From Candidatus Latescibacterota bacterium (lineage in GTDB: Bacteria > Latescibacterota > UBA2968 > UBA8231): a stretch of 64,000 nt of DNA. The position numbers and the translations under genes are program-made. Location: contig OZ242214.1 of NCBI GenBank assembly GCA_965206595.1, positions 6,720,001-6,784,000 of the forward strand, read 5' to 3'. The notes beneath the pieces were generated by a model. The model was not told the DNA's origin, did not search any database, and worked only from the letters and a program-made list of their open reading frames with translations. This document shows positions 13,572 through 33,866 of the stretch, one piece after another (the first letter of the stretch is position 1; each line of letters opens with the position of its first letter).

Positions 13572-14515
13572 CTACTTGAGGCAGAGCAGCTTCCGGGACT
13601 GCACTCCATCGGGGTAGTACAGACGTATCAGGTAGACCCCTGCCGCCACCGCGGCCCCCCGCTGGTCAAGGGCGTCCCAGTGGACCTGGTAGAAGCCGGC
13701 GGCCTGGACTTGATCTATCAGCGTGCGCACAGGCTGGCCCAAGGCATTGTAGATCTCCAGCCGCACCGGGCCGGGAGTGGCCAGGCGATAGGCGATCTGA
13801 GTTGTGCTGTTGAAGGGGTTGGGGAAATTGGGCGACAGACCGCTGACGGCTGGTCCCTCCGACGCCGCCCCTTCCTTTGCCGCGTCCAGCCGTTCGACGG
13901 CAACCATCCGTACATCGCCGCCCAATGTCAGTTCCAGGATCTGGCGCCGGTTGCGGTTAAGAGGGATGCTGTTCCATTGGCTCACGATCTCGCCGGCCGG
14001 GTTGCGGGCGCGGGCGCGGTAGAAGCCGCTGACGCCGGGCGGTGCCGGGCTGGTGATGGACAGGGCCGCGCGGCCGGCCGAGTCGGTGACCGCGCTCCAT
14101 GCGTAGTCGGGTCGGCGACCGGAGATGGCGCGGGAAAACTCGACGGTCAAGCTCTCGACCGCGTCGCCCAGGATCGTGGCTTCCACTTCCGTGCGGGAAA
14201 GGGGCGTCGAATCGGGGGTAGCCACCGGTGGGGTTGTGATGTAAGGCGACATGTCCCACAGTAGAACCGTGCCGTCCCAACTCCACTGGCCAGGGTGGTC
14301 CCATCCGGCGAGAAAGCCACCGAAATGACCGCATGCGTATGCCCTTGGAAGGTGGCCTTCTCCTGCCCGCTAGCCAGCTCCCACAACACAACAGTTCTGT
14401 CGTCACTGGCACTGGCCAGGGTGGTCCCGTCCGGCGAGAAAGCCACCGACTCGACAGACGACGTATGCCCTTGTAGGGTGGCCTTCTCCTGCCCGCTGGC
14501 CACATCCCACAACCG
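13572..14515 (-). pseudogene. 3' part of split WD40 + FlgD-like gene (2 WD40 repeats, frameshift near 14282, FlgD Ig-like C-terminal domain)
   Basis: RLWDVASGQEKATLQGH repeats; GGA AGT TGG reduced to GGA GT TGG; NFPNPFNSTTQIAYRL...EIYNALGQPVRTL. Confidence 0.85.
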
Positions 14516-14777
14516 AACCGTATGGAAACCCCCCCTCATCCACTTCCCAGGAGCTTCCAACTCTCTGGGGCCATTCTTCCTGGAAGGGGAAGGCAAGGAA
14601 ACCCTGCCACAACCGCTCCCTCGATCTGGGCCGTAAACACGCGGTGGAGGGCAATCGGAAGGAGGCAGAGTCAGCCTTAGATACGAAAAGGCAGTAGTAG
14701 TCTCAATAACAACGAGGTAGTTAAAGGAGCCCATTTGGAACTACCGTACAACGTCCCTGTGCAACGGTTACCTATCA

Positions 14778-15170
14778 TCATGGCAACAAGGTTCTGTATC
14801 TGATCCCCAGCATCAGACCCGCTTCGCACAAGCGGTGGGTAAGAGAGATGTCGTCATTGCTGAGGGCAGGGTCACCGCTGGGGTGATTGTGGGCAAGGAT
14901 AATACCGTTAGCGCCCTTGAGAATCGGGGCCTTGAACGCTTCCCGAGGGTGCACGATGGAGGCCGCTTGACTGCCGATAGACGTACCTTCGTGCGCTACG
15001 ACCCTGTTCCTTGCATCGAGGTGGAGAACGATAAAAACCTCCCTGTCACAGTTCCGGAAGTCTTCCAGGCTGTTCAGGTAGGTGATGACTTCTCCAGGAC
15101 TGGTAAGGGCTTCGCTGCACACGTCTTGCCATATCTGTCTGATCTTGACTTCGGTCAATTCGAGCTTCAC
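14778..15170 (-). CDS. radC: RadC/JAB domain protein, C-terminally truncated
   Basis: DREVF, VHPRE, IILAHNHPSGDP..S..D motifs; lacks the usual LLDH segment after GI. Confidence 0.8.
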   Translation of the reverse strand: MKLELTEVKIRQIWQDVCSEALTSPGEVITYLNSLEDFRNCDREVFIVLHLDARNRVVAHEGTSIGSQAASIVHPREAFKAPILKGANGIILAHNHPSGDPALSNDDISLTHRLCEAGLMLGIRYRTLLP

Positions 15171-15178
15171 GGTAGTTC

Positions 15179-15230
15179 CTTTCTGGTTAATTGTGGGTAC
15201 TACTCTTTCTGGTTAATTGTGGGTACTACT
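15179..15230. repeat. 26-bp tandem duplication
   Basis: CTTTCTGGTTAATTGTGGGTACTACT twice, just upstream of radC. Confidence 0.85.
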
Positions 15231-15372
15231 GTAGTACTACTCTTAACTGCAGTACAGATATCTCCCCCTCCCAACAGATACCCTCCCCCTCTTGCCCTGC
15301 CGAAAGGGAGTTCGTACCTTGCCCAATTCCAACAATACAAGCGGGTGGTGGATTCCCCCGGAAAGGACTTCT

Positions 15373-17342
15373 ATGGCTCTAAAGAAGCTCGGAAACAGCT
15401 ACCTCGTCGGTGCCAGCGATAGCGCACAGGCATCATTCGACGAAGACATCAATTACCGGGGGTGGAAGGATTTCCTCGTGTGGGTACCTTCGTACGACTC
15501 CGATCAGCAGGCCGTGATTACCGGGTATTCCGACAACCCGGATTCCTGGATAGATGCCTCCCTCTACCGCTGCAGCAATCTCCTGGATGATCCAGGGACG
15601 TTTGTGGACGATGAATCCGTACGATCCCTGACACGGGCAGCAGGAGGAGGGTCCATGACGTTTGAGTTCGGCCCGGAACCAGCTCGCCTTTCCGGGCTGT
15701 TCCGTCTCCGAATCAAGCCAAGAGACAATGATTCGATGTTCACGGTGAACTTTCAGAACCTTCCCTGGTATGCCCTGGAGTGCTGGGAGCCGCGCAATAA
15801 TTTCTACATATTCGGTATCTCCGGTGGCGCTCCCATCGAACAGTATTTCTTCATTCCAAGGCTGACCGAGGATGACGATTATGTTCGGGTGCGGTTGCAG
15901 ACCGGGAACAACATCGAAAACGCACGGCTCGACATATACACGGAAACCGGGGAAGATCCAATTGCTACGGCGATATGCAAAGGTATAAATGCAGCAGGTG
16001 ACGATCACCCCTGGTACGATACCGCCCGGATCGATGGAGACGACCTTCCCTCAGAGTATCCAGGAGGGATATATCGTTTCCGTCTTACGGAAGCTTTAGA
16101 TGATATCGAACAACCTTCCGGAAATACCTGGGTGCGGTTTTCCAAGAACGTAGTTCCGTACTTTTCGGGTAGTGCCGAGCGGTTGATTTATCCGATTCTC
16201 CATCAGAGGATCGATCCGGTTTCATATGTCGATGAGCCGCAGTCTCACCGGCTATACCTGACAGTTCCCCGGACCGTCCCTTCGGGAGAGACGGCTATAA
16301 TTCCCGAAGCCAGTGAACTGAAGTTGAAAACGGGAACGTCGCCGGAATCGGACACGACAACGGGCTTTTCCGTTATCACGACGCTGACCTTGGATTCACC
16401 CCAGAAGATCGAAAGAGGAGCTGATTTTGTCGCGCAACTCCTGGATGGGGATACGGTAGTCGCGGACAGCACCGACAAGGTCGATACTCTTTACGGCATT
16501 CGGGAGCCTGTATACGACAGCGACTTTCCCGAGAAGCTGATACCCGCTTGGGATAACGGGAACGGCAGATATACCTCCCAGGACATGAGTGCCGGACATA
16601 TAAACACGATACAGACGAGTGACGAAACATCCATACCGAACATTGTTGACATATAAACACGATACAGACGAGTGACGAAACATCCATACCGAACATTGTT
16701 GCAACATCCTGGGGTGCTCTGTACACACCTCCAGAGCAATGCAATCCTACAATAAAGGCTTGGTTCAAGACAGAGGTCGAAGGAGAATACCCGAATGCAA
16801 ACAGCGAGAATGTTCGCTTTTGGGCCATCCGAGACGAACCCGACAGCGGCCCTGGGTATTACCGGGCTTCTGGAAAGGTCTATCCGGTAACTGCTCTCAA
16901 GGACTTGTATGATGCGTTTCTATGCTATACGGGTTATACAAGCAAGCCCTTTCAAATCACCATCCAGCACACCATTTTCATCGAGGAATTCAGCCGAGCG
17001 TGCGACATTATTGGCAGCGATCCCTACGTCTGTGCAGTGAAGCATACCGAGAATTACAGGCGAGTGCGGGACTGCGTAGCGGAGCTGACGTACAATCAAA
17101 AGGCTCAACAAAAGCGAATGATTATCATGTGGTGGTGGGACCCGAAAGTAGGGGCGGGAACAGCCGTTGAAGTATCCCTTTTCGAAGACGCATTCGAAGA
17201 AGCAACGGGTATGGAGAGCATAGGCGGATGGAACTTTTCCGCTGGAGGGTATCCGGTGGAGAACCCGCTGAACACTGGTGATCCTGATTTATGGACGGCG
17301 ATAACAAACAAGAACAACGACTGGATCAATCCGACAGAGTAA
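15373..17342 (+). pseudogene. about 638-aa protein with glycoside hydrolase-like C-terminal part, frameshifted by a 53-bp duplication
   Basis: AAGGA SD before ATG 15373; removing one copy joins ORFs 15292-16656 and 16905-17342; FWAIRDEPD and DIIGSDPY motifs. Confidence 0.7.
16595..16700. repeat. 53-bp perfect tandem duplication
   Basis: GACATATAAACACG...CCGAACATTGTT at 16595-16647 and 16648-16700. Confidence 0.92.
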
Positions 17343-17344
17343 GA

Positions 17345-18355
17345 ATGGGGAAGTTTATTCTGGCCGGTGTATTTCTGTTTCTGTCGATTTTCCCGGCAAA
17401 AAGCCAGACGAGCTTGATTACTTGGAAAGGGTGCGGGGGGCTTTGTGCGATGGACCCCGATAAGCGCGGTGCCTCTCCGGCTCCCCTTTTCCTTGGGTTA
17501 GGTCTCGAAGGGTCTATTGCGCAACACGATTGGTCTCTGGATGGAGAAAAAGTCGCGTTTACCGTTTATTCCGGAACGGCACCCAATAGCGATGTATGGA
17601 GCATCCGGACAGACGGAACGAATCTCAAGCAGCTCGTGCGGCAGCGGCGCAAGTGTCCGTTTGGGGGGAAATACGACGGTGGAAATAATGGTTTATGCGT
17701 CCCCGTTTTCAGTGATGGACTTTCCTGGTCTCCCGATGGGTCTGAAATTGCCCTCCTACATGGAAACGGAATCACCTATTTCATACAACCGGAAGAATTC
17801 CAGATAGAGGAACCGTCTGATTTCGCTACGAGGTTCCTTTATTCGAGACAGGCAGGAGAGATAAGGTTCAGCGCATTTCAAATCGACTGGGCTCCCGATG
17901 GTCGTATATACATCGGTAAACATAATGAAGAATGGGAAATATTGTCTTTCAATCGAGACGGATCTGGGGAGGAATTACATGTCCGAAATGGTATATTTCC
18001 GGCAGTTTCTCCAAATGGAGAAAGGCTTGCGTTCCATTGGGCCGGAGGGCGATCCTACCTTAGGAAGGACAGCCTTTTCGTAGCGGACATTGACGGCAGA
18101 AATATTCGGTATCTGACAGAAGGAAGCAGACCTTCCTGGTCTCCTGATTCTCAGCGCATTGTTTTCCTTGAATTCTTAGGAAAAGGACGAGGCGAGGGAC
18201 GAATCGGAATAATTAATGAAGATGGAACCGGCCTGGATATCTTGCATGAGTTTTCGATTTGGCTTGATGATGTTGACTGGTCTCCCTGGCTGAACACACC
18301 GACAGGGGTCTCCCCAGCTTCCTGGGGAGAAGTGAAGCGGGAGTTTTCGGAATGA
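17345..18355 (+). CDS. secreted TolB-like (PD40) beta-propeller with C-terminal SWGEVK motif
   Basis: Signal peptide MGKFILAGVFLFLSIFPAKS; repeated WSPDG-type motifs; ends VSPASWGEVKREFSE. Confidence 0.85.
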   Translation: MGKFILAGVFLFLSIFPAKSQTSLITWKGCGGLCAMDPDKRGASPAPLFLGLGLEGSIAQHDWSLDGEKVAFTVYSGTAPNSDVWSIRTDGTNLKQLVRQRRKCPFGGKYDGGNNGLCVPVFSDGLSWSPDGSEIALLHGNGITYFIQPEEFQIEEPSDFATRFLYSRQAGEIRFSAFQIDWAPDGRIYIGKHNEEWEILSFNRDGSGEELHVRNGIFPAVSPNGERLAFHWAGGRSYLRKDSLFVADIDGRNIRYLTEGSRPSWSPDSQRIVFLEFLGKGRGEGRIGIINEDGTGLDILHEFSIWLDDVDWSPWLNTPTGVSPASWGEVKREFSE

Positions 18356-18552
18356 ATAGGATCTTCAAAGCTCTTTTGATCGCCATTGGAGTTTTTATTT
18401 TCCTCCTGATCATGTGGGCTATTCCATGAGCATCGCCCTGGCTGTTATTGCTGTAACCTCTGTCCTGGTAATTCGTCGTCATTAGTCATCCTCTGGATTC
18501 GATTCATTGGGAGGTGGAAAGGGAGGGGAAGTAGGTTTCCCCTCCCTCACTT

Positions 18553-18846
18553 ATGATCTTCAGAGACAGACTTACAGAAACTCTCCTGAACATCGGCGAA
18601 GCTCAAATTGAGAAAGGGAAGTTCAACTCCCTGGCCGACAGCTTTCTCGTGCGCGAACTGATCCGTCTGGGCCTGGTTCTGTCCAAGGGTCTCAAGGAGG
18701 AAAAATACCGCGACCTGCGGCTTACCAGGCGCGGCAAGGAGTTGTATGTCCGGGAGACGATGAAGAGCCCGGAAACCCTTAGAGGGCGATCAGAGGAAGC
18801 ACTGAGAAAGCTGATCTATCTCGACTTCGAGGAGGAGAATCCGTGA
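18553..18846 (+). CDS. small hypothetical protein, winged-helix-like
   Basis: 97 aa; LIRLGLV...LRLTRRGKEL resembles a wHTH wing. Confidence 0.5.
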   Translation: MIFRDRLTETLLNIGEAQIEKGKFNSLADSFLVRELIRLGLVLSKGLKEEKYRDLRLTRRGKELYVRETMKSPETLRGRSEEALRKLIYLDFEEENP

Positions 18847-19205
18847 CTCGATTTATTGGTTTCATAGCCATGGCAGTCCTGGTTGCTTGCTCGGGGGACA
18901 AGGTGTTGAGCCCTCAGGCTGCTCCCAAGCGCGTCTCAAGCGGTATCATCTTCGGCAACGAAGGACTTGCGAATCCCTAATTCAGGTGTGGAGAATTGAC
19001 GCTCCCCTATGATTCTGCGGGAGCGTCGTCACTGCACTTCTACACCCTCCTTCCCGTTGAAGTGACGTGAAGCTTGACCGCTCGGGTAAGCTCGAACATG
19101 GAAACCTTGTTTCAATCCACCAGGGCGCGAAGCGCGGCATCCGTATGGATGTACGGGGCTTCCCCTTCCAGACCATTCTCGATGATGTAATCCCCCACCA
19201 GCTCG

Positions 19206-20282
19206 ATGATCTTTACCCAGGACAGCGGCACGTCTCCGACAATGACAGACAGCTCGGGGGAGGGTTGGTACAACTCTGAGGGCATTAGGGGCTCCCTTTC
19301 TGTTGGTTATTTTTTTGCATTGATCCTGACTGTCCCTGCACAGGCATGGCTATCCTGGTCGCCACAGGGGGATCGATTTGTGTATTCCACAGGGTCAGCA
19401 CAGTGGGGAGTGCCGGAAGGAGAAGTGTTTGTAGTTAACGCCTACACGAAGCAGTCTGTTGCACTCGGACCCGGGGTAAAGCCCGATTGGTCTCCCGTCG
19501 ATGACATTATTATTCTTCAACGCTTCGATGAGATATCCACCGTAAAGACAGACGGCTCAGGCTTACAGAAGATTGCCGAAACAAGCGGAGATCTAATAGG
19601 CTGGTCTCCAGATGGAAGCCGCTTTGCCTGGTGGAAGGGAAGTCTTGGGAAAGGCGTTTCTGTTTACATCAAGGAAACTGACAGAGACAGTATCCAGGTT
19701 ATTGAGCTTGACGACACCCGCATAGGAATCGGTTCTTGGGAGCCTTCTGGAATAGTCGTCTATAGCAATTCAGGCTGGGGACAACGAGAATCCGAACTGA
19801 CCTATGTGTCGATTTTGGATGTAGAGACCGGGCCAGCGGTATTGATAGACGGACTGAGGTTGTGCACCGAGGGAACCTCGGACTGGACTTCAGATGGCCG
19901 TCCGGCATGTTCATGGTGGGGATACATGGCAGGCGATTATACAGGATGGATCAACGCAGTAACCTTCTACGGGAAAACAATAACCGTTGTGGAAGGCTTG
20001 CTTCGTCCCTCCCATCCCTCCTGGTCTCCTGATGGCAGGAGGCTTGCATTCGACCTGGAGCTCCCTGATTCCACAAACGAGATTTTCATTGCCGAAGGAG
20101 AAGGTCTTGAGGAAATCCGACAAATAACCTTTGATGGACAGGGGAATTACCACCCCAAGTGGAGCCCTGATGGAGACGTTATTGTTTACCAGACTGACTC
20201 GTCTCTTGCGTTCATATCTCCGGAAACGCCTTCAAATGTTGGGCTAATTAGCTGGGGAGAGGTCAAACGCAAAGGAGAGTAG
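19206..20282 (+). CDS. second secreted TolB-like (PD40) beta-propeller with C-terminal SWGEVK motif; start uncertain
   Basis: Hydrophobic signal FFALILTVPAQA; multiple WSPDG; ends NVGLISWGEVKRKGE. Confidence 0.8.
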   Translation: MIFTQDSGTSPTMTDSSGEGWYNSEGIRGSLSVGYFFALILTVPAQAWLSWSPQGDRFVYSTGSAQWGVPEGEVFVVNAYTKQSVALGPGVKPDWSPVDDIIILQRFDEISTVKTDGSGLQKIAETSGDLIGWSPDGSRFAWWKGSLGKGVSVYIKETDRDSIQVIELDDTRIGIGSWEPSGIVVYSNSGWGQRESELTYVSILDVETGPAVLIDGLRLCTEGTSDWTSDGRPACSWWGYMAGDYTGWINAVTFYGKTITVVEGLLRPSHPSWSPDGRRLAFDLELPDSTNEIFIAEGEGLEEIRQITFDGQGNYHPKWSPDGDVIVYQTDSSLAFISPETPSNVGLISWGEVKRKGE

Positions 20283-20772
20283 TAATGCGTCTTGCTCACA
20301 AACCTGCTTGCCTGAAGGGACAGACTTCTCCCGCGCATCAGTGAACGCTGGATGCAATTCCCAGGCTGTTTCCGCCTGCCTCCTGGCAGAGAACGAGGGT
20401 CGTGCCGTTTCAACTGACCTGCGGCTCCATAGATAGGGTCCCCCCGCTTCAGAGCGCTGCCTTTTTTTTCTGCAGTAATTGAAGTCCCACCCCCCGCTAC
20501 CGCCTTTCTCCAACTAAAGTTTCAGGCCATTTTGGTTTTAGTTTCAACCGGTTATAATAAAAGGTAGAAGGAGGCAGGCAGCATCCGCTGCGGCTTCCCT
20601 GTCCCTTCTGTCGGCGGACACCGACGGAGTCACTATCCCTCTGAAACCGAAAGGAATTATATGGGAGCGTGAATCACAATATTTATTTGAGAGCCCCTGG
20701 TATTCAAGTACGGTATTCCACGGCTCGAAGATAATCCAGATCATTTTCGATCCCTTTTGAAGGTGTATAGCA

Positions 20773-21708
20773 ATGACAGCTACTCCGAAGACACAATATT
20801 TAAACACCCCGTCTGAACAGTCACAACCTTCCATACTCGGACCTCCCGTCCCGAACACCCTGTCCCTGGACGAATTCTACAGCATCTTCCCCGACGAGAT
20901 ATCAGCAGAGAGGTGGTTTGAGGATCTACGATGGAGCAACGGCATTACCTGCCACAGGTGCGGAGATAACAGGTTTACAGAAACTAAATCCGAAAGTCGC
21001 TCCGCTGTGGTGCCGTACTGGTGCTACACCTGCCGCAAACGCTTCAGCGTTCGCACTGGAACCCGCCTTCAAGGCACCAACCTTCCTCTGAAAAAATGGG
21101 CCTTGAGCATTTACCTGTCCGTCAACGGACCGATAAGCTCCACAGGTCTAAGCGGCTATCTCGGAACGGAGGCGCATACAGCATGGTCCGCCTTGCAAAA
21201 TATCCGCCAAGCCTGGGGAGATCCTGAACCGCTCCACGCCACCGTCGCAGAAATAGACGAAACCCCCTTCGGAAAGGTGCGAGGCGCTTCAGGACAGATA
21301 ATCGTCCTGGGAATGAAAGACCGGAACACCGGAAAAATCGCGGCAAAAGTCATCCCCAAAAAAGACCTGGCCACCATAGAACCCTTCGTCCAACTCCACA
21401 TGCAGGATAACCAGGGCACCCTCTACAGCGACGGGGCCAAGGTCTACAGGGCGGTAAGGTGCGTCGCAGACCACCAGTATGTCGTTCACAGCAAGGGGCA
21501 ATACGTCAATGGCAAGGTGCACACTAATGGAATTGATTCATTCTGGTCCTCTCTGAAGGAAGCATATCTTCACACCTATAGACAGAACATATCCGCAAAA
21601 TACTTTCCTCTGTACGTAAACGAGATCGTCGGACGACATAATATCCAGGACAAGGATACAATGGGGAAAATGAAATGGCTCGCCTCCAGGTTGCTGGAAC
21701 CGAAATAG
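20773..21708 (+). CDS. IS1595-family transposase
   Basis: Zn ribbon CHRC..CYTC, FSVRTGT, EIDETPF, LYSDG, VVHSKGQYV, HTNGIDSFW. Confidence 0.92.
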   Translation: MTATPKTQYLNTPSEQSQPSILGPPVPNTLSLDEFYSIFPDEISAERWFEDLRWSNGITCHRCGDNRFTETKSESRSAVVPYWCYTCRKRFSVRTGTRLQGTNLPLKKWALSIYLSVNGPISSTGLSGYLGTEAHTAWSALQNIRQAWGDPEPLHATVAEIDETPFGKVRGASGQIIVLGMKDRNTGKIAAKVIPKKDLATIEPFVQLHMQDNQGTLYSDGAKVYRAVRCVADHQYVVHSKGQYVNGKVHTNGIDSFWSSLKEAYLHTYRQNISAKYFPLYVNEIVGRHNIQDKDTMGKMKWLASRLLEPK

Positions 21709-22197
21709 ACAGGGTCGGGACGCAAGCAGCCGGTCCTCCGGGAGGCTGGAATGAGGCCAGGAAGAAAGGTGCCGACTGGCTCCCCGTCCCTCCTCGAAGT
21801 CGTGCAGATAGACCCTCGTAAAGCCCCATAGACGCTCGACGAAGCCTTGTCCCTCCCTACCCTCCACCCCCCGGGGCCTGCTCCCCTGCAGCCCGGTCTG
21901 AGCACGATCTATGAATCTCTCAGAGGATTGAAAGGGAAGGTGGAGCCGGTGAGATTCCGGTCTGCCTATGTATTACGGGATGATCTCGAAGAATAATCTT
22001 CCAGTTCTGAATCTCCTTCCATCTCCCGGGTAAACAGTGGACGACGAGGGGTGTCCATTTCTCTGTATTCTTTATCATATAGTTATACCATAATTTCTTG
22101 AAATTCGCGGGAAAGTCTCTCCTTGATCGACGTAAGGAATCCCTGGGGAAGACAAGGCGACTCTTCGGCAGCCCCCCCGAAAACAGGGAGAAATTCT

Positions 22198-22845
22198 ATG
22201 CCAAGGACAGCTTGTCTGATTGCCCTCTTACTCGCCGCTCCTCTACAGGCAAGAGAGTGGAGCTTAGGCGTGGATCTTCCATTGGATCAGGGTGGCACGA
22301 GCTTATGGAATACAGGGGAACAGGGAGGCTACGTATGCCCCTTGGAGGACCTACAATTAATACCTTCGCTTCAGGGTCCTCTCACGCTACAAAGGTGGGG
22401 GAACAATGTTCTTCCCCGGAGAGATGAGATGAGACCCGGAGCTGGCATTTCCAGAGGGTATAAAGATTTCGGAGTTTTCCTATCCTATGAGTTTGGATAT
22501 GAAGGATGGGATGGAGATGGCATATACGAGAGAGTAGGACTGGACGCTTACCCCCGAGAGTAGTTGTCTACTGGACCCTCCGATGAGTCCAAGGTTCTTG
22601 ATCTCGATCCTCCCCTTGAAATGCGTTATGCGCTCGTGGTATCCAGCGAAGGACTCACTGAGTTCCCCAGGACCGTCGAGAATGACCTTGCTGTTGGTTG
22701 GAAGAATACTGTCAGGTGTCGAATAACTCCTCCTGCCATTCCATCGCGTAACCTGTTACGGGAGGGTGTCCCTAAGGTGATGTCTTTTCGAGGGATACAT
22801 CGAACTTTATATTTCTCATCAGTTTTTGCGCAGTATTCGATATAA
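22198..22845 (+). pseudogene. fragment of a secreted protein with in-frame TAG at 22561
   Basis: GGGAG SD, signal peptide MPRTACLIALLLAAPLQA; the same frame continues after the stop. Confidence 0.5.
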
Positions 22846-22850
22846 GTCCC

Positions 22851-23951
22851 AACCGTATTGTCCCAACTTCCACTGGCCAGGGTGGTCCCATCCGGCGAGA
22901 ACGCCACCGAACGGACCCAAGATGTATGCCCTCGGAGGGTGGCCTTCTCCTGCCCGCTGGCCACATCCCACAACCGAACCGTTTCGTCATAACTCACACT
23001 GGCAAGGGTGGTCCCATCCGGCGAAAACGCCACCGAAGTGAGCCCGGTCGTATGCCGGAGGGTGGCTGTCTCCTGCCCGCTAGCCACCTCCCACAACACA
23101 ACCGTGCCGTCCCGACTCCCACTGGCCAGGGTGGCCCCATCCGGCGAGAACGCCACCGAATAGACCACATATATATGCCCTTGGAGGGTGGCCGTCTCCT
23201 GCCCGCTCGCCACATCCCACAACACAACCGTGCCGTCTCGACTCCCACCACTAGCCAGGGTGGTCCCATCCGGCGAGAACGCCACCGAACGAGCCCAATC
23301 CGTATTCCCTTGGAGGGTGGCCTTCTCCTGCCCGCTGGTCACCTCCCACAACACAACCGCATAGTCCGGCCAACCTACACTACTGGCCAGAGTGGTCCCA
23401 TCCGGGGAGAACGCCACCGAAAGGACCCTCCCCGTATGCCGGAGAGTGGCCTTCTCCTGCCCGCTGGCCACATCCCACAACCGAACCGTTCTGTCCTCAC
23501 TTGAACTGGCCAGGGTGGTCCCATCCGGCGAAAACGCCACCGAAAGGACCCCATCCGTATGCGCTTGGAGGGCCGCCTTCTTCTGTCCGCTGGCCACATC
23601 CCACAGCACAACTGTGGAGTCGAAACTACCACTGGCCAGAGTGGTCCCATCCGGGGAGAACGCCACCGCACGGACAAACCTTGTATGCCCCGTGAACAAG
23701 GCGATTTCAGCACCGGTGCCAGCATTGTAGAGCCAGATACCGATGCCACTTGCCACGGCCAGCCGTATGCCATCGGGGGAATAGGCCACCGCTCGGTCCC
23801 CACCACCGATGCCGCCTTTGCCCAGACGGGCGAGGGCCCCTTCGGGCAGATTCCAGCGGGGATAGTCCTGGGCACGGCCTTCCCGCACCAACAGGACACA
23901 GGCCAACAAGAAGGCGACATTGAATATTCGGGGCTGTTTCATCTGATTCAT
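22851..23951 (-). pseudogene. 5' part of split secreted WD40-repeat gene (about 8 repeats)
   Basis: Signal peptide, WNLPEGALARLGKG, tandem VAFSPDGTTLASG repeats cut at the insertion. Confidence 0.9.
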
Positions 23952-32839: not shown

Positions 32840-33866
32840 ATGGGGTATTCAGTTGACTCAGGTTCCCCTCGGCAGAGCTTCCAGGAACATGGAGGACTAT
32901 CCGCAAAACCTTCAGGAGTTGGAGGCCCGGTTTTCGACCGAGGACGTCTGTCGCCAATACTTGGTTCAGCTGCGTTGGCCGGACGGGTTTGTCTGCCCTC
33001 GCTGCGGTCACGAGCAGGCTTGGTCTGTAGGGATCCGGCTGGAGTGTGGTCAGTGCCACTACCAAGGGTCGGTGACGGCGGGGACGATCTTCCAAGGGTC
33101 CCGCAAGCCCCTGGCCCAGTGGTTCAGGGCGATCTGGTATGTCACCAGCCAGAAGAACGGCGCCAGCGCCTTGGGCCTGCAACGCATCCTGGGCCTGGGA
33201 AGCTATGTCACGGCGTGGAGCTGGCTTCACAAGCTGCGCCGGGCCATGGTCCGACCGGGACGGGACGGTCTTCGGGGCCGCGTCGAGGTCGACGAAGCCT
33301 ACCTGGGGGGTCTGGAGGAAGGCGTGTCGGGTCGAGAAACCGAGACCAAAGCGCTGATCGCGGTGGCTGCCGAGGAACAGGGACGAGGGATCGGTCGGAT
33401 TCGCCTCATGCCCATCCCGGACGCCTCGGCGAACAGCCTCGAAGCCTTCGTCCGGGCCAGCATCGAGTCCGGTAGCCGGGTCCATACGGACGGCTGGGAA
33501 GGCTACGGGGCCTGACCAGCCTGGGGTACCGGCACCGAGTGACGGTCCTGCGGCACAGCCGCAAGCAGCCGCATGAACTGATGCCGCGAGTCCATCGGGT
33601 CGTCTCCCTGCTGAAGCGTTGGCTTCTGGGGACCCACCAGGGAGGTATCAGCAAGGAGCATCTGGAGTACTACCTCGACGAGTTCACGTTTCGCTTCAAC
33701 CGTCGCACCTCACATCATCGCGGCAAGCTGTTCTATCGGCTGCTCCAACACGCCATGCAGACCGAACCGGCACCGTATTCCCAGCTGGCGAAAGGGATCC
33801 GCCCAGGGCCCAAGCGCCAAGCGGCGGCGACATAAAACTGCAACCTGAGCGAACTAAATACCCCAT
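32840..33866 (+). mobile_element. IS1595-family insertion sequence
   Basis: TIRs ATGGGGTATTCAGTTGACTCAGGTT / ATGGGGTATTTAGTTCGCTCAGGTT; flanking AACAGGGA at 32831-32838 and 33867-33874. Confidence 0.92.
32889..33835 (+). pseudogene. IS1595 transposase, frameshifted near 33510
   Basis: CPRC..CGQC, VEVDEAY, VHTDG; C-terminal LLKRWLLGTHQG..YLDEFTFRFNRR is in another frame. Confidence 0.88.

Follow-up and report, generated by a model that had tools for sequence, protein, structure and literature searches.

An 8.3-kb IS1595-family insertion with a single family-type end in a WD40 gene of Candidatus Latescibacterota, and its relationship to large transposons with paired end-modules

Insertion sequences (ISs) of the IS1595 family produce 8-bp target duplications, and a terminal GG is conserved at IS1595/Merlin ends (PMC8101967). 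In the present work, we describe an element of this family that interrupts a gene for a WD40-repeat protein in a 64,000-nucleotide (nt) stretch of Candidatus Latescibacterota bacterium (contig OZ242214.1, 6,720,001-6,784,000), which is referred to below as the window; coordinates are those of the window unless a genome is named. The window's own genome (G000; 7.05 Mb, 63.7% guanine plus cytosine, GC) was compared with the sister (congener) genomes G001 and G002. Our analyses indicate that the inserted DNA is an IS1595-family element with a single family-type end and a relative of giant transposons that are bounded by paired end-modules in the sister genomes. The features of the insertion, its transposase module, its two ends and its cargo, and their significance for the mode of transposition, are discussed below.

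Insertion of the element into a WD40 gene

The insertion and the two parts of its host gene are located as follows.

14516..14523: left copy of the target duplication, AACCGTAT, identified by the single copy at the G001 empty site
14524..22850, + strand: inserted element, 8,327 bp, GC about 52%, the only full copy in the genome
22851..22858: right copy of the target duplication, AACCGTAT
22851..23951, - strand: N-terminal part of the host WD40 gene (signal peptide and repeats)
13630..14523, - strand: C-terminal part of the host WD40 gene (3' limit approximate)

A first-pass annotation of the window had reported exact 8-bp repeats around 8,327 bp whose removal restores the host frame, and the coordinates, the reading frames and the empty site of G001 all agree with this report. 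Excision of the block together with one octamer restores the minus-strand WD40 reading frame, in which the N-terminal part stops at ...TLASGSWDNTV at 22851 and the C-terminal part picks up TVRLWDVASGQEK at 14521. At the orthologous locus in G001, the two flanks (92-93% identical to those of the window) lie adjacent to each other, the WD40 frame is uninterrupted (773 codons open, with a Met 38 codons in), and the site ...TGGGACAATACGGTTCGGTTGTGGGAT... holds the octamer once (ATACGGTT); on one side 54 nt are the same as in the window, and on the other 49/52 nt. This uninterrupted gene with its single octamer constitutes an empty site and identifies the block as a precise insertion accompanied by an 8-bp target duplication; the block is neither a product of repeat recombination nor a chimera. 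The block is also distinguished by its GC content, which is 47-57% as compared with 59-67% in the flanks. The octamer is rare, with 3 occurrences in the 64-kb window and with 36 direct and 61 reverse-complement copies across the 7.05-Mb genome.

Among the Logan contigs of public runs, those of X1, X3 and X5 span the right junction and those of X1 also the left junction, in each case by 31 letters or more on both sides; the X3 and X5 contigs extend just 30 letters over the left junction. The element is present in contigs from runs of three studies, and one of the runs with junction-bridging contigs may be the source sample. No circle junction was found among these run contigs, in which rare forms are not visible. 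Joints in run contigs that skip ~8.4-8.8 kb (e.g. 14522 to 22965 in X3/X5) were considered as empty-site alleles and rejected, their sides being 21-28 letters long, of 90% likeness and in repeat DNA.

An origin that does not involve a transposase, viz. recombination between WD40 repeats, capture of DNA at a break, or an assembly chimera, with the octamer arising as a by-product of the repeats, would draw on the composition of the host gene, which consists of near-identical repeats in which ACGGTT (Thr-Val) recurs, on a difference in repeat number between the G000 and G001 orthologues, and on local assembly errors or variants within the element. However, the difference in repeat number lies elsewhere in the gene, and at the junction itself both flanks are colinear with the G001 empty site, where the octamer is single, so that recombination between WD40 repeats, the outcome which the first-pass annotation had named as fatal to its own reading, does not account for the locus. 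Further, a family-type terminus meets the duplication to the base, 8 bp is the duplication length of the family, and independent contigs span both junctions; an origin of this kind is therefore considered highly improbable. The 8-bp duplication, the empty site, the one IS1595-family transposase and the passenger genes uphold the earlier proposal that the whole 8.3 kb entered as one transposase-type event.

Two further observations concern the host gene. When set against the G001 orthologue, its C-terminal part has an apparent frameshift near 14280; some run contigs differ by 1 nt at 14277/14282, and the frameshift may be an assembly error. An open reading frame (ORF) at 14147-14734 (- strand) has its ATG within the left segment of the element and continues in frame across the junction into the 3' part of the WD40 gene, making read-out expression of a truncated WD40 protein possible.

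The transposase module and its recurrent terminus

The right-hand part of the element contains the features listed below (aa, amino acids).

20570..20736, + strand: conserved leader upstream of the transposase gene, with a promoter-like TTCAAC..TATAAT before it
20773..21708, + strand: IS1595-family transposase, 311 aa (D162, D220, D255 replacing E, and K262)
22123..22563, + strand: 146-aa ORF (p146) with a signal-like N-terminus, conserved beside the terminus in island e, island h and contig C9 of G001 (G001:C9)
22564..22845, + strand: 93-aa ORF (p93) that extends to the right terminus
22793..22806, + strand: inward-facing second copy of the terminal motif, GGGATACATCGAAC, forming a ~58-bp palindrome with the terminus
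22824..22850, - strand: right terminus, which reads GGGACTTATATCGAATACTGCGCAAAA from outside

The transposase matches Pfam PF12762 (DDE_Tnp_IS1595) with 74.4 bits (cut-off 27) and NCBIfam NF033547 (IS1595 family transposase) with 123.5 bits (cut-off 75), and these matches above the cut-offs bear out the single IS1595 transposase that had been reported for the block. The N-terminal zinc ribbon (PF12760, Zn_Tnp_IS1595) scores 20.7 bits, which is under the cut-off of 25.4; in an alignment of 10 homologues, each of its cysteines C60, C63, C84 and C87 is either invariant or conserved to at least 90%. Alignment with 9 homologues shows D162, D220 and K262 to be invariant. The third acidic position, residue 255, which is followed by K seven residues on, is D in the window transposase and E in all nine aligned relatives, as had been noted from the motif TNGID where TNxIE is usual. 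The gene is present in a single copy; the next full-length match has 47% identity in its own genome and 49% across 76 genomes of the order, and 74% identity is reached by a truncated copy in G001:C9. The closest full-length relative (49%), located at G001:C2, has no recognisable terminus within 19 kb, and a search of genome contigs with the window transposase turned up no relative. A distant IS1595-like transposase fragment (29% identity over residues 31-227) is located ~10 kb past the element at 32907-33512 (+ strand).

The leader is a sequence of ~165 nt with an invariant core, CCGAAAGGA...ATGGGAGCGTGAATCAC, that is present in all 14 copies (the window and 13 other loci) from four genomes and contains a mini-ORF, ATG GGA GCG TGA. 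No Rfam match was found for the leader, and the Rfam and tRNA scans of the element were empty. The fold of the leader RNA has a z-score of -2.0, the RNAalifold covariation term is -0.06 and 3 of its 32 pairs are compensatory; an RNA structure is not established by these values, the copies apparently being too invariant in sequence for proof.

The right end of the element is a genuine, recurrent transposon terminus. The terminus GGGACTTATATCGAATACTGCGCAA... recurs with the same end base in two other locations, viz. in island e of the same genome, where the neighbouring DNA is unrelated (76% identity over the last 223 bp), and in G001:C9, where it lies inside another WD40 gene (82% identity) with different flanks, and a diverged version of it bounds island f. 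The palindrome that occupies the last 58-60 bp (window 22793-22850, G000 4404458-4404517, locus L021 ~1848-1909), with its inward motif copy ~45 nt from the end, is preserved in all three copies although their overall identity is 76-82%. When compared with the other four terminus variants, the window terminus scores 12-21 (the range over all pairs being 2-25). A scan of metagenomes with the 19-nt core of the terminus returned 6 stretches, none of which resembled the element.

Termini of this kind abut WD40-repeat genes in four cases (G000 423202, G000 298310, window 22851 and G001:C9 53534), two of which have the LA(S/F)G position of the repeat in common, and the WD40 DNA that is detectable with the host protein makes up only 0.4% of G000. 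This adjacency could reflect a target preference or tolerated nesting in mobile WD40 islands. Two solo termini in G000, at 3233153 (+) and 958103 (-), are 2.3 Mb apart and have a common flanking octamer, ATGCAATC, as if a chromosomal rearrangement had separated the two ends of one element.

Island f (G000 6043118-~6052700, locus L091), whose terminus is a diverged form of the window type, contains paralogues of most of the cargo genes of the window element in a different order and abuts a HEPN_Swt1-DUF499 gene (the Pfam DUF499 match covers positions 37-553 of 1024). No credible duplications were found around islands e, f, a/b and s1. Several other candidates were rejected. A continuous helicase-like ORF encloses a match to GATGCGGC found 11 kb away from the end of island f, and the match was taken as chance; island h, considered as a circle junction (p146 followed by the p644 ORF), has an unfit spacing. 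The 'GGCTATATCC' end of a duplicated 6,228-bp segment (89371-95598 = 423989-430216 of G000, 99.98% identity), considered as the terminus of a relative, belongs to an unrelated multicopy IS of ~1.46 kb with the ends GGCTATATCCGGGTTTTT / GGGTCTATCCGGGTTTTT, which is found at G000 89371-90834 and in at least 9 other places, and one copy of which truncates an IS1595-type transposase within the duplicated segment.

The left end and the paired-module relatives

The left end of the element differs from the right end in the features described below.

14524..14801: unique left-terminal segment beginning GGAAACCCCCCC, not an inverted repeat

The left end (GGAAACCCCCCCTCATCC...; 5'-GGAAAC) has only the terminal GG and one A (GG.A) in common with the terminus, and its first 40 nt score 0-5 against the five terminus variants, which is within the range of shuffled sequences; the earlier description of the ends as not obvious inverted repeats is thus borne out. 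No second copy of the left 257-278 bp was found in the genome itself or in 75 other genomes of the order, a search of the order with the left segment giving only two marginal matches of 38-40 nt. The recurrence of the ends, which the first-pass annotation had proposed as a check in this genome and elsewhere, is hence observed for the right end and not for the left end. The left end does contain two direct copies of GGAAACCC..CC, 75% similar, at 14524 and 14597. No terminal inverted repeats were detected between the two ends or upstream of the transposase gene, and no second transposase, p146 or p93 copy was found inside 14524-22850 by tblastn.

These results also bear upon a small IS1595-type IS, nested in an older island and having its own repeats and duplication, with its left end near 20653. 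Such an IS has been suggested by GGAATTATATGGGAGCG at ~20651, which is loosely like the terminus. However, GGAATTATATGGGAGCG is situated inside the leader, which is conserved ~85 nt further upstream in 14 copies and hence has no boundary at this point; no inverted copy of the terminus is present in 14400-22900 at up to 11 mismatches in 27 positions, apart from two matches at chance level; and there is no octamer repeat at ~20651, the island and the module sharing one duplication. The nested IS that had been named as a possible refutation thus has no inner inverted repeat around the transposase, and we assign it next to no probability.

Relatives with the same type of module are found in the sister genomes. 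Our scan of G002 covered 8 module loci, 2 of them without such a terminus. The other six transposase modules, which encode a 41% identical protein and have the same leader, show a razor-sharp outer end, ...GCGCAGTTATCTAGATAATTCCC, and a ragged, mosaic inner boundary. An inner inverted copy of the terminus is absent from all six (at up to 9 mismatches in 27 positions), and hence these modules are built with one end and depend on another located elsewhere. The 2.5-kb DNA segments outside the outer ends map pairwise to adjacent positions in G000, with an overlap of ~6 to 8 bp, which identifies the modules as the two inverted ends of three elements. A fourth element was found in G001 by an exact-pattern scan of 185,579 species genomes, in which, apart from the window's own genome, only these two metagenome-assembled genomes gave matches. 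Inverted pairs of the terminus type of these relatives, GGGAATTAT.TAGATAACT.CGCAAG, surround the following four elements (TSD, target-site duplication).

Element 1: G002:C3 1304677-1339122, 34.4 kb, TSD GAACGAGG
Element 2: G002:C3 1941107-1986021, 44.9 kb, TSD CTCGTAGC
Element 3: G002:C3 4234635-4283179, 48.5 kb, TSD CGACGCGA
Element 4: G001:C11 1182940-1208810, 25.9 kb, TSD AACGCCAC

All four paired elements (loci L095-L115) have near-perfect 40-bp termini and perfect 8-bp duplications. Single-copy empty sites for elements 1 and 2 are present in G000, in which the octamer of element 3 is not conserved. The cargo of the 34-kb element includes a complete type I restriction-modification (R-M) system, a YgjP peptidase, a kinase/ORC-Cdc6-like ATPase, two more transposases and three WD40 proteins of ~730 aa. 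The normal form of this transposon group is therefore a large element with a transposase module at each end, whereas the window element has one module.

The paired elements of G001 and G002 resemble the compound or pseudo-compound transposons that are described for IS1595-family ISs, viz. ISEc69 with mcr-2 (PMC7835479) and ISApl4 (PMC12561309), in that both of their ends carry a transposase and a duplication encloses the entire element. However, those transposons, as they are described, are made of complete ISs with inner and outer ends, whereas the Latescibacterota modules lack the inner end (6/6 in G002), and the window element comprises just one module. Our literature searches found no published compound transposons whose modules lack inner ends.

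The names of the ISNwi1 and ISNha5 subgroups, their size ranges and the end consensus ggnnatTAT are those of ISfinder, and the GGGAATTAT of the relatives presumably fits the ISNwi1 end consensus. The transporter IS (tIS) is described in the TnCentral preprint as an IS-like structure with two inverted repeats (IRs), a direct repeat and passenger genes between the IRs, and IS1595 is said there to be among only two IS families that form tISs. The window element is like the tISs of the ISNwi1/ISNha5 type in its IS1595-family DDE transposase with a putative N-terminal zinc ribbon, its 8-bp duplication, its internal passengers and its GG terminus. It is unlike them in having one family-type terminus with no inverted repeat opposite and a module without an inner end, and in that its relatives measure 26-49 kb and carry a transposase gene at both ends. 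The designation of the block as a large transporter IS is accordingly not sustained, the second IR being absent, only the right end being of the family type, and the normal form of the relatives being larger and having two modules.

A true two-ended tIS could nevertheless be envisaged, in which the left 5'-GGAAAC... is a real, reusable terminus unlike the right end and the 8.3-kb unit could transpose a second time. The 8-bp duplication with its clean ends and the passenger-carrying tISs known in the IS1595 family (according to the TnCentral preprint) agree with this possibility, the left end begins with GG as the termini of the family do, and the direct copies of GGAAACCC..CC at this end could be binding sites. 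On the other side, the left end has no second copy in its own genome, in the 75 order genomes or in a whole-element search of 40 relatives (metagenomes were not searched for it), it is indistinguishable from shuffled sequences when compared with the five terminus variants, and all four resolvable paired elements of this terminus type have two matching termini. We regard a two-ended tIS as unlikely, while allowing it an appreciable probability.

Cargo genes, mode of insertion and significance

The genes carried to the left of the module are listed below.

14778..15170, - strand: radC-like JAB gene, 130 aa, the Pfam match covering 2-101 of 121 profile positions
15179..15230: exact 26-bp tandem duplication, at which run contigs break or differ
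15292..17342, + strand: GH2-like gene, present in the assembly as ORFs 15292-16656 and 16905-17342 (454 + 145 aa)
17291..18355, + strand: PD40 (TolB-like) beta-propeller 1, with a hydrophobic N-terminus
18553..18846, + strand: 97-aa ORF without a family match, having a 54% identical paralogue in island f
19206..20282, + strand: PD40 (TolB-like) beta-propeller protein 2

The cargo list of the first-pass annotation stands for RadC, the two PD40 propellers and the one IS1595 transposase, and for the glycoside hydrolase-like gene it holds at the level of the fold only. The likeness of the radC-like protein to its paralogues stops at residue 123, and this, together with the partial Pfam coverage, indicates that the 3' end of the gene is truncated or replaced. 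The 97-, 146- and 93-aa ORFs have no family match in profile searches.

The GH2-like gene is split in the assembly at an exact 53-bp tandem repeat (16595-16700), and its paralogue in island f (L091:5046-6980), which is 90% identical, is a single ORF of 644 aa. The contigs of all four runs have 18 other letters in place of 16649-16707, which brings the frames into register, and 16707-17342 is stop-free; the gene is hence probably intact in the population. Small indels relative to the assembly are also present in run contigs at 20535, 21867 and 22041, and these sites and the 53-bp and 26-bp tandem duplications are likely to be assembly errors or strain variants. The GH2-like family is rare, with 14 homologues among 5.8 billion proteins, none of them named, and the sole match in the ESM Atlas (0.76) is an unnamed cluster. 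The AlphaFold model of the protein (pLDDT, the predicted local distance difference test, 75; pTM, the predicted template-modelling score, 0.82) has GH2 beta-glucuronidases as its top Foldseek matches (E 4e-11), with a template-modelling (TM) score of only 0.28, and this likeness suggests a resemblance in domain architecture and is no proof of an enzyme.

Taking all of these features into consideration, we consider the block to be a real transposase-made insertion of an IS1595-family element with one family-type end, and judge the chances to be about even that it arose by one-ended (surrogate-end) transposition like that of ISEcp1. Two parts would have moved together, viz. a terminal module of ~2.3-2.5 kb, consisting of the leader, the transposase, two small ORFs and the terminus starting GGGACTTAT, and ~5.8-6 kb of upstream donor DNA with radC, the GH2-like gene, the two PD40 propellers and the 97-aa ORF. 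The good terminus and a surrogate end within the cargo (5'-GGAAAC) would have been brought together by the transposase, and both ends would then have been joined to an 8-bp staggered cut in the WD40 gene. The left boundary would have been picked by the transposase at insertion, and the donor would have been a larger paired element.

The features of a one-ended unit are present in the window element, viz. a canonical end by the transposase, a non-homologous far end and a TSD of the family length around the whole, and the left end opens with GG, the dinucleotide that is conserved at IS1595/Merlin ends. The chemistry of IS1595 transposition has been little studied. One-ended transposition with surrogate ends is established for some ISs, including ISEcp1 (PMC3316993). 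As described there, the ISEcp1/IS1380-type systems are like the window element in combining one good end with a dissimilar surrogate, in moving adjacent DNA in one piece and in producing a duplication typical of their family. They differ from it in their transposase family, and a single unit is seen in the window case, with no siblings of variable length.

A number of points weigh against one-ended transposition. The orientation is different: ISEcp1 bypasses the end that lies downstream of its transposase, but the window element retains its downstream end and its cargo, the mobilised DNA, is upstream of the transposase. The proposed movement rests on a single case, and we know of no description of one-ended transposition for IS1595 elements. 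No donor was found among the genomes searched, and no clean sibling unit having the same right module, another left end and its own TSD was observed. The left end and the terminus are equal at 6 of the first 27 positions, which is the chance level. Island e (7,093 bp), which has one terminus, a ragged far side and no duplication and has lost 145 bp of host DNA, fits a later deletion as well, and the copy in G001:C9 is 5'-truncated with host DNA missing.

With the duplication intact, the left boundary must either date from the insertion itself, as a joint to the target, or have been re-created exactly at a later time. In the latter case, a canonical two-module element would have been inserted and its left module lost afterwards, e.g. 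by transposase cleavage at the terminus and end-joining to a point within the cargo. Paired modules are the norm in the congeners, decay or one-sided loss is seen in relatives (island e and G001:C9), and the truncation of radC ~278 bp from the left end places a breakpoint near that end. However, the outer breakpoint must then have fallen exactly between the duplication and the terminus with all 8 bp kept, whereas both decayed relatives also lost host DNA; a new end starting with GG would be a coincidence of ~1 in 16; and this course of events does not account for the unique 278-bp segment that separates the junction from radC. A later loss of one module is thus considered quite unlikely.

Whether or not it arose by one-ended transposition, the window copy now looks inert, as it is single-copy, has an E-to-D change in the third catalytic residue, contains a truncated radC and lies in a dead host gene, and no sign of current mobility of the element was found in the data examined. 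The earlier suggestion that the unit moves secreted proteins is an inference, secretion being judged by eye only from the hydrophobic or signal-like N-termini of the two propellers and the 146-aa ORF, and no second movement of the unit was seen.

A broader interpretation may be put forward tentatively. The Latescibacterota would possess an IS1595-family lineage that has no ordinary ISs and consists of end-modules with only an outer terminus and the ~165-nt leader; inverted pairs of these modules would bound transposons of 26-49 kb with R-M and other defence-like genes and WD40 arrays, a single module would move its neighbours in one-ended fashion, and landing in WD40 genes would occur far above chance.

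The window provides a base-precise insertion together with an empty-site control for a unit with a single recognisable end, and in the sister genomes the same end-modules form the limits of transposons that reach 49 kb and whose cargo includes defence systems and WD40 genes. If the one-ended use is not real, the window element represents an ordinary, decaying transposon insertion. If it is true, the capture of neighbouring genes of the ISEcp1 type would extend to another transposase family, and it would help to explain the spread of low-GC islands of secreted propeller and WD40 proteins in this uncultivated phylum.

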